DNA from: Arcobacteraceae bacterium
GTDB taxonomy: Bacteria > Campylobacterota > Campylobacteria > Campylobacterales > Arcobacteraceae
Direction of reading: 5' to 3'
Assembly (NCBI GenBank): GCA_048268245.1
Contig: JBLWVX010000009.1
Span: 1 to 64,000, forward strand
Length of the DNA stretch: 64,000 nucleotides
Made by a program: the position numbers. Positions 1 through 15,000 of this stretch are shown piece by piece. Each line of letters starts with the position of its first letter. The first letter of the stretch is position 1.

Positions 1-3000
1 TAAACAAAACATTGTTGCTCAAGCTGGTACTTATGCTATGAGTCAAGCTAATGCTATGCAACAAAACGTTTTAAGATTACTTCAGTAGTATTTCTTTAGC
101 TTGTGTTTAAATTAATATATTTAAATAACTATTAACTATGTAAGAGTTCTTCTCTTACATTGTTATAGTTTTACTTTTTTTTACAATATAAGCTAAATAC
201 TCTTCATATTTTTCAAATAATTCTATAAGTTTCTCTATCCAAATAATAATAATTTTATTCATCTTTATCTTCTCATTTTTCTTTTTTATGAGCATACAAT
301 ATGAAATATAAGGATTAAAAGCTAAAGAATAGCCAGCATATACTTCTTTTAAAAACTCTATTTTACTTTCATCATTCATTATTAAAACAAAAATATCATT
401 TGATAGTTGATTTAGTTGTTCATAAGTATCAAAAGATTTACTATTATTTAAATACTTTATTAATTTAGGAACTAAAGAAAGGTGTTTTTCTAAATTTTCT
501 AAACTCTTATCATCAAGTCTTTTAACCGTCAAGTTATCAAAATCCTTAATTAAAAAATCTCTTATATTACATTTATCTAAATTTTTTAAACTTTTTTTAT
601 CAAGAGAAGAGATTAAAGTAGGTTTAGTATTTTCTATAAATGCTCCATGATTTGATAAGTTATATATTTGTACTTGATCTGAAAAAGACTCTCTATTATA
701 GTATTTTAATGAAGCATAAAATAACCTACTAGTTAAAACTTCATCTTTTAAGTTTCCTTTAACTTTTATAAAATTTTCTCTTGCAGAGTAGTTTTCACTA
801 AATATTTGATTATTAGTATTTTTTAGATCTACTTTTTTACTATGTTCATAATCATCAGAATGAGTAGAACCTGTTTCTTGATTTAAAGCCATATCTAAAC
901 CAAGTAAATATATATCTTTTATATTATTAAAAGTTGAAATTATTGAGTATGTAATCTCTCCAACTGAATTACCTGTGAATTTTTTTTGACCAATTTGAAT
1001 ACTACCTAAAACTTCATATAAATATATATTTGTAAGATTTGATAACCTTTCTATCACTTCAGGATTTGTATTAATAGAAGCTATTACTATTGCTTTTTTT
1101 ATTAAACTCTCAATTCCATCTTTTGGGAAAAACTGTTTTTCTACGTGTTTCTGTGGATCTACTGTTGTAATTATATCAGGTTGAATATCATTCTCATATA
1201 GTATTTTTAATGCAGCAGCCATTGTAACTATTATAAACCTATCTTGATTTTCTTTAACCCATTGAATATTATCACCTAAAGAAGGTCCTGCACCAAGATA
1301 TAGAACAGATTTTTTTTCAAAAGTATCTAATTGTAAATGTATTTTTAGTTTTAATGTTTTATATTTATAAAAGTTTTGTGATAAGTTAAATACTACATTA
1401 TCTAAATGCATATAATAATTAAAAGATAAAGGATTTACATCTAATGCTTTATCTACTATTCTATCAAAATATTTTTCTACATTATAGTTAGTTGAATAAA
1501 ACTTTAAAAGAGAGTTGTTATATATATCTTGGTTAAAAAAAGTTGAAAATTTTGAACTAAAAACTTTTTCATCATCCATAACAGAAAATACAACTTTTCT
1601 TCCTTCAACAGCTAGAGCGCTATAATCACATACAAATAAAGATAGTCTAAATATCTCTAAATTATTCTCACATATAAAAAATCTTTTTGCATTTGTTTTT
1701 TTCAAAATCTTAGGAATATGTCTTCCTAATAATGTTCCAACAAAAATAAATTTATCAATTTCATTTATTTTTTTATGTTCTCTATCTATTTTTATATTTA
1801 GCTCTTTTTTAATACTATAAAAATCATTCATAAACTTTTTCATAGCAACAGAAAAAACACTTTCATTATCATAAACAACAAAGTCACCTTCATTATCAAA
1901 ATTATACTGCCCAGCACTAAGAGTATTAATACTATTTGTTAAATCAAAATTTGTTTGTACAACTGCTTTATTATTGAATTTTTTTGGTTTTTTATTATAA
2001 ATATACTTATCTTCATTGCTATCATATATATCAAAGTCTCCTGACTCTTTTATAAATTCAAGAAAATATCTTTCTTTATACTCCCCTGTACCAATTGTAT
2101 CTGTCAAACTACAAATTCTAAGAAAAAGTTCATTATCAAACTCCGATAAAAATAATAAGTTTAAATGATATGTGTCCATCATTGCTTTATGTAATTGCTC
2201 TTCAGCAGACAAATCCATGTATTAGTCCTTTTTCAAATATAATTTATTATACTAAGATTTTATTAAATAAAGGTATAATAATAACCATGCAAGAACTACA
2301 AGAAACAATAATTCAAATTTATCAAAAAAATATAACTTTTCTAAAAAAGAACTACTTTGAAATATACAAAAAAGTAGAAGATCTAGAAAAAAACTTAATA
2401 GAAACTTATCATCTTGATTTTATTAATAATCATTTTGAGTTAATTCATCAAGATAAAAAAATATATAATTGTGACCCTTTTTATGATGCACAATACAGAG
2501 CTAAAAATATATACAACAATGAAAATATAATTTCATTAATTGATCCAAATAAAACTCTTGTATCATATGGGAATATAGATGAAGAAGTAGAAACATCTGA
2601 ATTTATAAATGAGTATGTAGAGCAATTAAAAAATATTGAAATACCAAAAGAACAAAGTAATAAATTTATATTCTTAGGTACTTTACTTGGTGTTCATTTA
2701 AATGATATCCATAGAGTCTTAAACTCAAAAGTTTATTTAATAATAGAGCCAAATATAGAGATTTTCAGATTATCCCTATTCCTTACTGATTATGAAGAAA
2801 TTGCTCAAAATAGTCAAATATTTTTTAGTATTTCACAAAATGAAGAAGAACTTAAAAACTGTATTATTAATTTCCTAAAATATAAATCTATTTACAACAA
2901 CTTTATTAGATTTGAACTTGCAAGTCCTAATGAACTTGATTTAGTTTCAAAAGTAAGTGAAATATTAACTTTAGAAAATAAAATAAGATACCCTTTTGCA

Positions 3001-12000: not shown

Positions 12001-15000
12001 ACAGGATTACCTGAAAAATGAACTGCATAAATTGCTTTTATGGAAGGGTCTTCTTCCAAAGCTTCTTCACATAAATCCAAGTCAATATTTCCATTTTTTT
12101 GTATATCTACAAAAATTGGTTTTGCATTAGCATAAAGTATAGAATTTGTAGTTGCTAAAAAAGAATTTGGAGTAGTTATAACCTTATCTCCTTCTTTTAG
12201 TAAAACTAATGAAGATAAGTGTAAAGCAGCTGTTGCATTTGAAACTGCAACACAATACTTAGCTTGCGTATATTTGCATAAAGCTTTTTCAAACTCTTTT
12301 ACTTTTGGCCCTGTTGTTAAAAAGTCGCTTTTTAGAACTTCCACAACTGCATTTATATCATCATCGTCTATAGTTTGTTTTCCATATGGAATTATATTCA
12401 TTTTATATATCTTTTAAAAGTTCTAAAAAGTCTTCTTTATTAAGCCATTTGTCATTATTACCAGAATTATATTCAAATCCTTGCTCTACTTGAATACCTT
12501 TTTCTCCAAGAAGGTTTGTTTCATAATTTTTATCACTGGTAAATTTAATAGTTGGAGTTATTACATAATGATCTTTAAACTCATAAGTTAAATGAGAGTC
12601 ATCAGCAGGACACATAATCTCATGAAGTTTTTCACCTGGTCTAATTCCTATGATTTTATGTGGCAATGTTGGAGCTAAAAACTTTGCTAAATCTACAATC
12701 TTTAAAGATGGGATTTTTGGTACAAAAATCTCTCCACCTTGCATTCTTTCAAAATTTTTAAGTACAAAATCTACTCCATCTTGAAGAGTAATCATAAATC
12801 TTGTCATTTTATCATCAGTAATAGGAAGCTCTTTCGCACCATTTTCTATAAGTTTTTGAAAATATGGTATTACAGAACCTCTACTACATAAAACATTTCC
12901 ATACCTTACAACAGAAAACTTAATATCTTGTTCCCCAACTAAATTATTTGCTGCTACAAAAAGTTTATCACTCGCTAGCTTTGTAGCTCCATATAAGTTT
13001 ACAGGATTTGCAGCTTTATCTGTAGATAAAGCAATTACTCTTTTTACTCCATTATCTAATGCAGCATCTATCACATTTTGAGCTCCATTGATATTTGTTT
13101 TTATACATTCCATTGGATTGTATTCTGCAATAGGTACATGTTTAAGTGCTGCTGCATGTATTACATAATCAACATCTTTAAATGCTTTTTTTAATCTATT
13201 TGCATCCCTTACATCACCAATGAAATATCGCATACATTTATCATTAAACTCTTGCTCCATTTCATACTGCTTTAATTCATCTCTAGAATAAATTATTATT
13301 TTTTTGGGTTTATATTTCTTTAGCAAAGTTTTTGTATATTTTTTTCCAAAACTTCCAGTACCACCAGTAATTAAAATCACTTTATCATCAAACATATATA
13401 AACCTTTTAAAACTTAATATAGTATAATATCAAATAAATTATTAATACTCTATATTAAGAGTTTATATGCAATAATAAACAAAAACTAGGTGTAGATATG
13501 GCTGAAAACAGTATTCCAGATAATATTATTAAAATTCAAAAAAAACTAGCTACTTTTGAAAAAGGTTCTAGAAACTACAAAAAGTACACTAAAATACTTG
13601 CAAAACATATTAAAAAACACTCTATGAAAAAAAGAGTGACTTCACATATAAAAACAATTGAAACTGTTGAGAAATTTACTGAAAAAAAGAACGAAAACAT
13701 AGAAAAATAAAAAACATTACAATTTGCAATAAAAATATATACTTTATATTTTTTCTGCTAAAATTCCAACATATATAAAATAAATGAAATCTACACAGGA
13801 TAAAAAACAATGGATGATAATCAAAAAAAATCTTTAGACTTAGCAATAAAACAAATTGATAAAGCATTTGGTAAAGGTACTTTAATTAGACTTGGGGATA
13901 AAGAAGTTATTCCAACTGAGTCTATTTCAACAGGATCTTTAGGACTTGATTTAGCACTTGGTGTTGGTGGTATTCCAAAAGGTAGAGTTGTTGAAATCTA
14001 TGGACCTGAATCATCTGGTAAAACTACACTTACACTTCATGCAATTGCAGAGTGTCAAAAAGCAGGTGGAGTTTGTGCCTTTATTGATGCGGAGCATGCT
14101 TTAGATACAAAATATGCAAGAGACATTGGAGTTGATATTGACAACTTACTTGTATCTCAACCTGATTTTGGTGAGCAAGCTTTAGAGATTTTAGAAACTG
14201 TTATTAGATCAGGAGCTGTTGATTTAGTTGTAGTTGACTCAGTTGCAGCACTTACTCCAAAAGTTGAGATTGATGGTGATATGGATGACCAACAAGTTGG
14301 TGTACAAGCAAGATTAATGTCAAAAGCTTTAAGAAAAATTACTGGTTTATTAAACAAAATGAACTGTACTGTAATTTTTATTAACCAAATAAGAATGAAA
14401 ATTGGTATGACAGGCTATGGAAGCCCAGAAACTACAACTGGTGGAAATGCTCTTAAATTCTATTCATCTGTAAGATTAGATATTAGAAGAATTGCTACAC
14501 TTAAACAAGCTGAAAATTCAATTGGTAATAGAGTAAAAGTAAAAGTTGTTAAAAATAAAGTAGCAGCACCATTTAAACAAGCAGAGTTTGATATTATGTT
14601 TGGTGAAGGTATTTCAAAAACTGGAGAACTTATTGATTATGGTGTGAAACTTGATATTGTAGATAAAGCCGGAGCTTGGTTCTCTTATGGTGATTCTAAA
14701 ATAGGTCAAGGAAAAGAAAACTCTAAAATCTTCTTAAAAGATAATCCTGAAATTGCAAATGAAATTGAAAAGAAAATTCTTGATGCAATGGGTGTAAATG
14801 ATGAAATCATCCAAGGTGAAGTAGAAGAAGATACAGAAGAGTAGAAAAAACTACTTATATAGAAAAGGGGAAGAATATAATTCTTCCCCTTTTTTTATAC
14901 CTATAAATTTGTAAAAGCAAAGAAAAATTTAATTTTAGCTATAATGTAGCAAATTATATGAATATAGGAGACCTAAGTGGTATTTATTGACAATGTATAT

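Follow-up and report, generated by a model that had tools for sequence, protein, structure and literature searches.

A comB–comA–ATP-grasp–methyltransferase cassette in the pseudaminic-acid operon of an Arcobacteraceae bacterium: a possible route to a sulfolactoylated flagellin sugar

Organization of the operon and its flagellin-glycosylation context

The window, which is the whole stretch of 64,000 nucleotides analysed here, carries at 4107–13395 on the minus strand a single densely packed operon in the order pseB–pseC–cytidylyltransferase–pseG–comB–comA–ATP-grasp–methyltransferase–pseI–NanM-like methyltransferase. From pseB to the NanM-like gene the reading frames either overlap or are separated by gaps of at most 31 nt, and the operon is flanked by two Maf genes and the end of a flagellin gene. 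Profile matches bore out the gene content and order given in the genome-wide survey's note, which had, however, placed all of the genes on the minus strand; the second Maf gene and the flagellin fragment lie on the plus strand.

The operon's first gene encodes the inverting 4,6-dehydratase PseB (12403–13395, minus strand; TIGR03589, 562.5 bits against a cut-off of 407.75), and it is followed by the gene for the aminotransferase PseC (11268–12401, minus; TIGR03588, 462.4 bits, cut-off 423.5), which makes the 4-amino UDP-sugar proposed below as the acceptor. Next comes a cytidylyltransferase (10559–11275, minus; Pfam CTP_transf_3, 82.9 bits), the putative CMP-Pse synthetase. The canonical PseF type was ruled out for this protein, on which TIGR03584 gives no match, the best score of that profile across the genome being 43.9 bits at another locus. 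The UDP-sugar hydrolase PseG (9599–10546, minus; TIGR03590, 231.5 bits, cut-off 153.55) precedes ComB of the 2-phosphosulfolactate phosphatase family (8884–9612, minus; Pfam 2-ph_phosp, 111.1 bits) and the phosphosulfolactate synthase homolog ComA (8091–8852, minus; Pfam ComA, 300.8 bits over the full length). The comA gene overlaps by 4 nt that of an ATP-grasp protein of the carboxylate-amine ligase type (7084–8094, minus; ATP-grasp_3, 27.9 bits), the proposed sulfolactate:amino-sugar ligase, after which follow a class I SAM methyltransferase that co-occurs with it (6220–7083, minus; Methyltransf_23, 71.2 bits) and the pseudaminic acid synthase PseI (5155–6210, minus; TIGR03586, 500.9 bits, cut-off 340.25). 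The last gene, encoding a NanM-like putative sugar O-methyltransferase (4107–5183, minus; TIGR04371, 256.3 bits, cut-off 44), is part of the conserved backbone and lies outside the cassette; it has an ortholog on the metagenome contig L013, and ORFs of similar size follow pseI in the congeners G055 and G057.

Both flanking Maf-type flagellin nonulosonic-acid glycosyltransferases are recognized by two Pfam models, the one at 155–2218 (minus) by MptE-like with 94.3 bits and Maf_flag10_N with 60 bits, and the one at 2170–4104 (plus), whose real start is probably an internal Met near 2287, with 109.2 and 47.9 bits, respectively. A divergent Maf pair is also present in G055 and G057, as judged from ORF size, strand and position alone. 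Convergent with the first Maf gene is the 3' end of the flagellin gene (2–88, plus), truncated by the contig start as had been noted before, of which 28 residues and the stop codon remain; its translation ends in QANAMQQNVLRLLQ, which we take to be a typical flagellin C-terminus.

The assembly of this region is backed by an 8865-base contig from sequencing run X3, which spans 2509–11373 with 12 differences, and by pieces from run X9, from a separate study, that cross the ComB/PseG, ComA/ComB and methyltransferase/ATP-grasp junctions, with the reservation that one of the two runs may itself be the source of the window.

The cassette genes and their recurrence

ComA, present as the sole copy in the genome, matches the Pfam model with an E-value of 8.9e-90 over profile positions 1–243 of 243, which reproduces the full-length match of about 1e-90 reported previously; its alignment to PDB entry 1u83, the phosphosulfolactate synthase of B. 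subtilis (E 1.4e-64), is consistent with the reported 48% identity to B. subtilis YitD, and it also aligns with 1qwg (E 1.9e-50). ComB aligns with 1vr0 (E 3.4e-15) and is 54% identical to the ComB of the family genome G140. Both proteins score under their NCBIfam equivalog cut-offs, ComA with 261.1 bits (TIGR03849, cut-off 280) and ComB with 82.5 bits (cut-off 235). Neither ComC nor ComD was found in the genome, and there is thus no onward route to coenzyme M. A source of sulfite is provided by CysH, CysD and a sulfite-reductase domain, clustered on contig C12.

The ATP-grasp protein belongs to a rare clade, for which a word-limited search of 5.8 billion clusters returned 29 homologs. D258 and N273 are invariant among the homologs and E271 almost so, and this motif presumably forms the Mg-ATP site. 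The predicted model (pLDDT 95) has as its best fold matches GAR synthetase (PurD; 2yw2, E 8.5e-19, TM 0.72), the top fold, followed by L-amino-acid ligases (4wd3) and 2pn1; by fold and sequence its relatives are carboxylate-amine ligases. PurD likewise acts on a small acid, which it couples to the amine of a sugar, but the identity of these proteins to the window's enzyme is just 12–17%, and their substrates differ. Orthologs of the companion SAM methyltransferase occur in loci L013, L015, L008, L009, L010 and L011, at 28–65% identity and with 45 invariant columns.

ComA was detected in only 2 of the 184 family genomes and 1 of the 401 sampled phylum genomes, so the pattern described here exceeds chance. 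In both family genomes the gene lies inside a Maf/nonulosonate locus with an ATP-grasp gene adjoining it. The other of the two is G140, where comB–comA adjoins a different ATP-grasp (23% identical) and a PIG-L deacetylase, within a Maf/NeuC/NeuB locus of the legionaminic- or neuraminic-acid type.

Fifteen loci with orthologs of the ATP-grasp gene were compared, namely the window, six genome loci and eight metagenome loci. ComA is found within the fetched DNA of 12 of them and ComB in 9, an XcbC-like lyase stands in for ComB in a further 2, and a pseI/NeuB-family gene follows in 10. Nearly all of those with ComA adjoin pseG and/or pseI, and the pseudaminic-acid loci that combine ATP-grasp with ComA are labelled Campylobacterota or Bacteroidota, apart from one doubtfully labelled MAG. 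The order pseG–comB–comA–ATP-grasp–(methyltransferase)–pseI, said earlier to be conserved in relatives, does recur on three metagenome contigs, L013, L015 and L017, and the short contig L014 holds comB–comA–ATP-grasp only. In L011 (39% identical) the ATP-grasp and methyltransferase genes are present with no comAB within 19 kb, ComA being on another contig of the same MAG. Hydrogenimonas G185 carries pseB–pseC–pseF–pseH–pseI on a first contig and lyase–comA–pseG–ATP-grasp–pseI on a second, where the 19 kb retrieved contain neither pseB nor pseC, which leaves the cassette locus with only the steps after PseC. In Saprospiraceae L008, one NeuB-family gene lies beside a GNAT and another beside the cassette.

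The pseH position and the proposed acylation

The four-gene cassette of comB, comA, ATP-grasp and methyltransferase occupies the position that pseH holds in a congener: in G056, the slot between pseG and pseI contains a canonical PseH (144.4 bits). As had been described for the other congeners, this slot holds different tailoring genes there, namely formyltransferase-like, methyltransferase and WbqC genes in G058, and FAD-oxidoreductase, methyltransferase and WbqC genes in G055 and G057, together with a YtoQ-like gene in G055. In the window's genome, which is 99.3% complete, the PseH profile TIGR03585 finds no PseH (best E 6.7). No NeuD/PglD-type acetyltransferase scores above cut-off in it either, the best match being a gamma carbonic anhydrase, and its two Acetyltransf_3 (GNAT) matches are both distant from the sugar genes; the genome may still hold an unrecognised acetyltransferase. 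The survey's remark that PseH is missing from relatives as well holds only in part: G056 has its PseH in the slot, and in G058 a GNAT gene (50.4 bits) lies 4.6 kb downstream of pseI. Across the family the PseH profile matches at E ≤ 1e-5 in 112 of 184 genomes and above cut-off in 22, so that absence of a canonical PseH is common.

In the model that we favour, to which we assign a probability of roughly one half and which is built on sequence comparison, the ATP-grasp enzyme replaces PseH and links sulfolactate to the amino sugar. From gene content and position we infer its chemical steps, acceptor atom, stage of ligation and site of methylation as follows. ComA would add sulfite, supplied by the assimilatory sulfate-reduction genes, to phosphoenolpyruvate to give (2R)-phosphosulfolactate, which ComB would dephosphorylate to sulfolactate. 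The ATP-grasp enzyme would then convert the carboxylate of sulfolactate to an acyl phosphate and pass the acyl group on to the PseC product, UDP-4-amino-4,6-dideoxy-beta-L-AltNAc, at its 4-amino group, thereby performing the step of PseH with another acyl group. PseG, PseI and the cytidylyltransferase would convert the acylated UDP-sugar to CMP-Pse5Ac7(3-sulfolactoyl), the co-occurring methyltransferase would probably O-methylate the 2-hydroxyl of the acyl group, and the Maf enzymes would transfer the sugar to flagellin. The computed residue masses are 426.094 Da for the unmethylated N7-sulfolactoyl-pseudaminic acid, 440.110 Da with one methyl and 454.126 Da with two. ATP-grasp enzymes are also able to form esters (VanA, microviridin ligases), but an N7 amide on the UDP-4-amino sugar appears likelier than an ester on finished Pse, since the slot is the PseH position.

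The survey's proposal that sulfolactate is ligated onto pseudaminic acid gains from the comparative genomics, i.e. from the rarity of the clade, the frequency of ComA beside it, the missing ComC and ComD and the sulfite source; it is tempered by L013, the closest syntenic contig (ATP-grasp 72% identical), which has the cassette and, after pseI, a canonical PseH (135.8 bits). This weakens a strict replacement of PseH and, together with the GNAT that accompanies the cassette in L008, indicates that the ATP-grasp need not replace it. These two loci favour a different arrangement, in our view unlikely though worth serious attention, in which sulfolactate is joined to the nonulosonic acid at another site or a later stage (esterified to a hydroxyl of finished Pse5Ac7Ac, on the CMP-sugar, or at N5) and the N7 acetyl comes from an unrecognised acetyltransferase; the computed residue mass would then be 468.10 Da, plus 14 per methyl. 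The combination of comBA, ATP-grasp and PIG-L deacetylase in G140 points the same way, as it suggests that an N-acetyl group already in place is exchanged and not that a free amine is used, and most family genomes do without a canonical PseH in any case. The PseI tree also agrees with it: the window's PseI groups with that of congeners without the cassette (96/99), and there is no cassette-specific clade, so that PseI shows no sign of adapting to a bulky acyl group. Against such late attachment, no candidate acetyltransferase was found in the window's genome, the cassette sits exactly where G056 has pseH, the closest folds are carboxylate-amine ligases, and the Hydrogenimonas cassette locus, with no pseB or pseC in its 19 kb, has its own pseG and pseI, which a late-stage modification would not need.

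It is quite improbable that free sulfolactate is made for another use, as a solute or cofactor precursor, with the ATP-grasp adding some other acid (amino acid, glycerate or lactate) and the genes brought together by an accident of island insertion. Free sulfolactate does build up in B. subtilis spores, the sequence and fold of the ATP-grasp do not reveal its substrate, and in L011 it is found with the methyltransferase but without adjoining comAB. Yet ComA accompanies the ATP-grasp in four-fifths of its loci, in genomes labelled as two phyla, and is almost absent elsewhere in the family and phylum; both family cases lie in Maf/nonulosonate loci beside ATP-grasps of different clades, comA overlaps the ATP-grasp gene, and ComC and ComD are absent. 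Least probable of all is an altered chemistry of the ComA and ComB homologs giving a different C3 acid (through another PEP nucleophile, ComB action on 2-phosphoglycerate or phospholactate, or sulfoacrylate), for which speak the sub-cut-off equivalog scores, the activity of ComB-family enzymes on other 2-phospho acids and the lyase in place of ComB in L007 and L019, and against which stand the end-to-end Pfam match of ComA, its alignment to 1u83 and the alternation beside it of ComB and the XcbC-like lyase, unrelated consumers of phosphosulfolactate, which suggests that phosphosulfolactate is the common intermediate.

Relation to known systems

ComA and ComB belong to the same families as the enzymes of methanogen coenzyme M synthesis and as YitD/YitC of B. 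subtilis, and the same chemistry is expected, from PEP and sulfite through phosphosulfolactate to sulfolactate. In contrast to these systems, the window's comAB lack ComC and ComD/E and lie in a sugar operon beside a ligase, and what they make would serve as an acyl donor rather than as a cofactor precursor or spore solute. XcbC of bacterial coenzyme M synthesis, which eliminates phosphate from phosphosulfolactate to yield sulfoacrylate (PMC9457059), is the best NCBIfam match of the lyases adjoining ComA in L007 and L019 (436 and 281 bits, both below the cut-off of 575); the window has no such lyase. The proposed ligation shares with the PseH step its place in the operon, as in G056, and its acceptor amine, but PseH is a GNAT using acetyl-CoA, whereas the ATP-grasp has an unrelated fold and an acyl-phosphate mechanism.

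The nearest chemical parallels are the N7-glyceroyl and 2,3-di-O-methylglyceroyl derivatives of Pse, for which the genes were unknown in 2017 (PMC5378307). In these compounds, described for Tannerella forsythia (Pse5Am7Gra), V. vulnificus and C. jejuni 11168, a C3 2-hydroxy acid is amide-linked to Pse, and the O-methylation of the C. jejuni 11168 form resembles the methylation proposed here. Sulfolactoyl would be the 3-sulfo analogue of glyceroyl, with a sulfonate replacing the 3-hydroxyl.

The earlier suggestion that this would be the first bacterial flagellin glycan with a sulfonate has to be withdrawn, as the type B flagellin of C. difficile bears a sulfonated peptidylamido-glycan that contains taurine (PMC5207245). 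There, as proposed here, the sulfonate is on a flagellin O-glycan, but it belongs to taurine, within a short peptide attached to Fuc3N, and is neither that of sulfolactate nor on a nonulosonic acid. By genetic evidence, the terminal moiety of that sugar depends on an ATP-grasp gene annotated as carbamoyl-phosphate synthetase-like (PMC5207246), and the available sections of both accounts contain no mention of ComA or ComB. Our literature search returned no paper describing a sulfolactoyl sugar; if the proposed pathway is correct, sulfolactoyl-pseudaminic acid would be a sugar decoration so far undescribed.

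Operon layout and family assignment of the pathway enzymes

The window opens with the 3' end of a flagellin gene, the last 28 codons of which (2-88, plus strand) are recognizable from the translation of the C-terminus. A Maf gene follows on the minus strand (155-2218) and a second one on the plus strand (2170-4104, the real start being probably an internal methionine near 2287), both of them encoding proteins with MptE-like and Maf N-terminal domains and with the flagellin gene adjoining. From 13395 down to 4107, the minus strand carries a block of ten genes which, by profile matches, encode PseB, PseC, a CTP_transf_3 cytidylyltransferase, PseG, ComB, ComA, an ATP-grasp enzyme, a Methyltransf_23 methyltransferase, PseI, and a NanM-like sugar O-methyltransferase, after which recA and eno stand on the plus strand. 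Neighboring genes of the block overlap or are separated by no more than 31 nt, in keeping with a single operon. The gene list of the genome-wide survey's note is borne out by these matches across the block, and its strand is to be corrected for the second Maf gene and the flagellin fragment, both of which it had placed on the minus strand.

A contig of 8865 bases from sequencing run X3 covers 2509-11373 with 12 differences, and pieces from run X9, which belongs to another study, bridge three of the cassette junctions; the arrangement is therefore no artefact of assembly, although the window itself may derive from one of the two runs. DNA nearly identical to 5155-10546 (at least 0.64 of the sampled words) is present in the runs of three studies, two of which are oyster or mollusc metagenomes by label, the third having a coded organism label. 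The GC content over the cassette is 0.28, with no compositional anomaly, and a promoter/terminator scan returned 85 promoter-like sites against 96.4 expected. Every read from the RNA runs X21 (4 reads) and X24 (528 reads) aligned only in part, those of X24 running into A/T tracts.

Four enzymes of the pseudaminic acid pathway pass the NCBIfam equivalog cut-offs, namely PseB (562.5 bits, cut-off 407.75), PseC (462.4, cut-off 423.5), PseG (231.5, cut-off 153.55), and PseI (500.9, cut-off 340.25). The cytidylyltransferase (10559-11275) matches only CTP_transf_3 (Pfam, 82.9 bits), a family which the genes of the congeners match as well, and PseF (TIGR03584) has no passing match in the genome, the best one being of 43.9 bits on contig C6 against a cut-off of 205.7. 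Judged by sequence, this enzyme is thus not of the canonical PseF type, unlike the cytidylyltransferases of four other loci with an ortholog of the window's ATP-grasp gene (L013, L015, L009, and L010), which match TIGR03584.

ComA matches Pfam PF02679 over the whole profile (1-243 of 243; 300.8 bits, gathering score 25.2) and aligns with the phosphosulfolactate synthases of B. subtilis (PDB 1u83, E 1.4e-64) and M. jannaschii (1qwg, E 1.9e-50). Its score against the NCBIfam equivalog TIGR03849, 261.1 bits, lies just below the cut-off of 280, and the cassette ComA proteins of other loci score 202.7-265. ComB passes Pfam PF04029 (111.1 bits, gathering score 26.4) and reaches no NCBIfam equivalog (best 82.5 against 235; TIGR00298 79 against 175), its best solved relative being 1vr0 (E 3.4e-15).

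Recurrence and genomic contexts of the cassette

ComA was found in 2 of 184 genomes of the family and in a single one of 401 sampled genomes of the phylum, which is the window's own. Fifteen loci with the ATP-grasp gene were compared, comprising the window, six loci from genomes, and eight from metagenomes. ComA is present within the fetched DNA at 12 of them, ComB at 9, and a PseI/NeuB-family gene follows at 10; the three without ComA are L011 with 19 kb of context, L018, whose sequence breaks off 198 nt upstream of the ATP-grasp gene, and L020 with 2.7 kb. The cassette is a real and non-random arrangement. At L007 (5826-7331) and L019 (2-1075), a lyase of the aspartase/fumarase superfamily stands where ComB would be, its best NCBIfam match being XcbC (436 and 281 bits, respectively, cut-off 575). 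According to one report, XcbC acts in bacterial coenzyme M synthesis, turning phosphosulfolactate into sulfoacrylate by elimination of phosphate (PMC9457059). The replacement of ComB by an XcbC-like lyase suggests that the decoration at these two loci may be sulfoacryloyl rather than sulfolactoyl.

By their record labels, the genome loci belong to Campylobacterota (Hydrogenimonas), Bacteroidota (three Saprospiraceae and one unclassified), and one metagenome-assembled genome labeled Henriciella. The label or the binning of the last, Henriciella pelagia, is doubtful, since another of its contigs (L047, G184:C5:321000-340000) carries type IX secretion genes, namely PorT/SprT and a protein with a T9SS sorting domain, which are hallmarks of Bacteroidota. 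That same contig, and not the ATP-grasp locus, holds the ComA gene of this genome, with a TPR protein as its neighbor. The context is flagellar (FliD, FliS, Maf) at the window, L013, and L015, and that of L007 is capsule export, while no flagellar or Maf gene occurs among the scanned ORFs of L008-L010 and L012, all labeled Bacteroidota, to our knowledge a phylum without flagella. Contexts that are flagellar, capsular, and Bacteroidota indicate that the cassette goes with the sugar and not with flagellin as such. Within L008, a Saprospiraceae locus, ComA is broken into three frames (G186:C92:73123-73825), which points to either a pseudogene or a series of errors in the assembly.

Selfish elements were also seen inside pse operons, including a Phd/YoeB pair in the congener G056 (L033:2334-2880), an MntA-like antitoxin with a 152-aa ORF (L016:1889-2666), and a PemK-like domain with which the PseF ORF ends (L015:1749-2873). 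At L020 (883-2572), a restriction-modification pair consisting of an IceA-like endonuclease and a D12 adenine methylase lies just upstream of the ATP-grasp gene.

The second of the two family genomes with ComA is of a different genus and has a parallel locus (L006, G140:C5:1-18000). Its comB and comA, 54% and 46% identical to those of the window, adjoin a PIG-L deacetylase and an ATP-grasp gene that is of another clade and 23% identical to the window's. The locus also encodes Maf, NeuC, a NeuB-like synthase, a glyoxalase-fold protein, and WbuX with HisH/HisF, and on this predicted gene content is a flagellin glycosylation locus of legionaminic or neuraminic type. Two sulfotransferase-domain proteins, one of them fused to TPR repeats, lie by its Maf genes.

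The step at which the ATP-grasp enzyme may act

The predicted structure of the ATP-grasp enzyme (pLDDT 95) has as its best structural matches GAR synthetase (PurD), L-amino-acid ligases, and the uncharacterized 2pn1, with PurD, the L-amino-acid ligases, and Ddl matched at E<=1e-15; a profile search of PDB sequences with the enzyme returned the same set. In an alignment of 31 sequences, D258 and N273 are invariant and E271 is kept in at least 90%, these being what we take to be Mg-ATP site positions of ATP-grasp enzymes. A word-limited search of 5.8 billion protein clusters gave 29 homologs, and the ESM Atlas placed the protein only in generic PylC-like or carboxylate-amine ligase clusters; we infer its acid and amine substrates from the gene neighborhood only. 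Orthologs of the cassette methyltransferase are shared by seven loci (28-65% identity), and the enzyme matches generic class I methyltransferases in the PDB, which do not tell O- from N-methylation.

The enzyme most likely stands in for the acetyltransferase PseH. TIGR03585 finds no PseH in the whole genome, which is 99.28% complete (best E 6.7); among the 184 family genomes, 112 have a match at 1e-5 and 22 score over the cut-off. No substitute N-acetyltransferase was found in the genome either: the Acetyltransf_3 search returned two GNATs, both unlinked to sugar genes (the neighbors of one are TPR, LysR-type, and HATPase genes, and the other stands next to a class-III aminotransferase), and the best match to a NeuD/PglD-like acetyltransferase is a gamma carbonic anhydrase. 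The position between pseG and pseI holds a canonical PseH in the congener G056. Among the other congener slots (L030:7497-9540, L031:7397-10167, L032:9822-13039), that of G058 holds a formyltransferase-like protein, a methyltransferase, and WbqC, and those of G055 and G057 hold an FAD oxidoreductase, a methyltransferase, and WbqC, with a YtoQ-like protein additionally in G055. The 4-amino group of the UDP-sugar becomes N7 of pseudaminic acid, and the contents of the slot across the genus mark it as the place of the enzyme acylating this group.

The Hydrogenimonas genome has pseB-pseC-pseF-pseH-pseI on one contig and lyase-comA-pseG-ATP-grasp-pseI on another; the 19 kb fetched of the latter contain neither pseB nor pseC. 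L008 has two NeuB-family genes, of which one stands by a GNAT and the other by the cassette. A branch which starts after PseC and has its own PseG and PseI is what would be expected if the ATP-grasp enzyme acts at the PseH step. It has to be noted, however, that L013, the closest syntenic contig, carries a true PseH after pseI in addition to the cassette, which counts against that reading. The PseI tree, with the G140 NeuB on a very long branch as outgroup, shows no cassette-specific PseI clade of the kind that would indicate acylation before condensation: the PseI of the window groups with cassette-less congeners (support 96/99) and the cassette PseI of L007 with the GNAT-side NeuB of L008 (98/99). 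The deacetylase of the G140 locus also speaks against action at the PseH step, suggesting that in other versions of the system an existing N-acetyl group is exchanged. Formation of an N7-amide by the ATP-grasp enzyme at the PseH step therefore has about even odds, while the broader claim, that an acid derived from phosphosulfolactate ends up on a nonulosonic acid, is considered likely.

Proposed product and its significance

CysD, CysH, and a sulfite-reductase domain are clustered on contig C12 of the genome, so that sulfite is available. Coenzyme M synthesis as the fate of the sulfolactate is ruled out, as the genome holds no Ldh_2 match for ComC and at best 20.7 bits (cut-off 147.95) for the sulfopyruvate decarboxylase ComD/E by TIGR03845.

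In the proposed mechanism, ComA and ComB (or an XcbC-like lyase) would have been recruited from coenzyme M enzymes to supply a sulfonated acid, the ATP-grasp ligase would take the place of PseH, and the cassette methyltransferase could supply the O-methylation. The reading put forward in the genome-wide survey's note, that sulfolactate is made and ligated onto pseudaminic acid, remains the best available one in its core and is refined here to the ATP-grasp enzyme standing in for PseH. In its full form, to which a tentative probability of roughly 0.4 is given, the proposal is that a family of sulfonated nonulosonic acids, N7-(2-O-methyl-3-sulfolactoyl)-pseudaminic acid and its relatives, would decorate flagella, capsules, or surface proteins at loci labeled Campylobacterota and Bacteroidota, being made by a mobile cassette of ComA, ComB (or the XcbC-like lyase), and an ATP-grasp enzyme replacing PseH, and that the ATP-grasp enzyme and methyltransferase, fed other acids, may be the missing route to N-glyceroyl and O-methylglyceroyl nonulosonic acids.

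One paper describes N7-glyceroyl pseudaminic acid in Tannerella and V. vulnificus and the 2,3-di-O-methylglyceroyl form in C. jejuni 11168, the genes for the glyceroyl group being called unidentified there in 2017 (PMC5378307); sulfolactoyl is the 3-sulfo analogue of glyceroyl. The survey's further suggestion of a first sulfonate on a flagellin glycan has been dropped, since C. difficile type B flagellin carries a taurine-containing peptidylamido-glycan (PMC5207245), for which an ATP-grasp gene is needed (PMC5207246). The literature searched, covering few subscription journals, contained no report that connects a nonulosonic acid or a flagellin glycan with ComA or sulfolactate; searches for ATP-grasp with pseudaminic acid returned nothing on such a cassette, and the terms sulfolactoyl, sulfolactyl, 2-hydroxy-3-sulfopropanoyl, and sulfopropanoyl had no occurrence among the papers listed.

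As sugars of the cell surface, pseudaminic and legionaminic acids govern the assembly of flagella as well as phage and immune recognition, and little is known of how their N-acyl groups are varied. The change proposed here is rated as N-acyl diversification of pseudaminic acid. If true, it would provide a concrete and testable route in which the PseH step falls to an ATP-grasp ligase, the known decorations would gain a sulfonate whose charge is permanent, and ComA/ComB would have a third use beside coenzyme M and spore sulfolactate; the exact masses that it predicts could be searched for in flagellin glycoproteomics.
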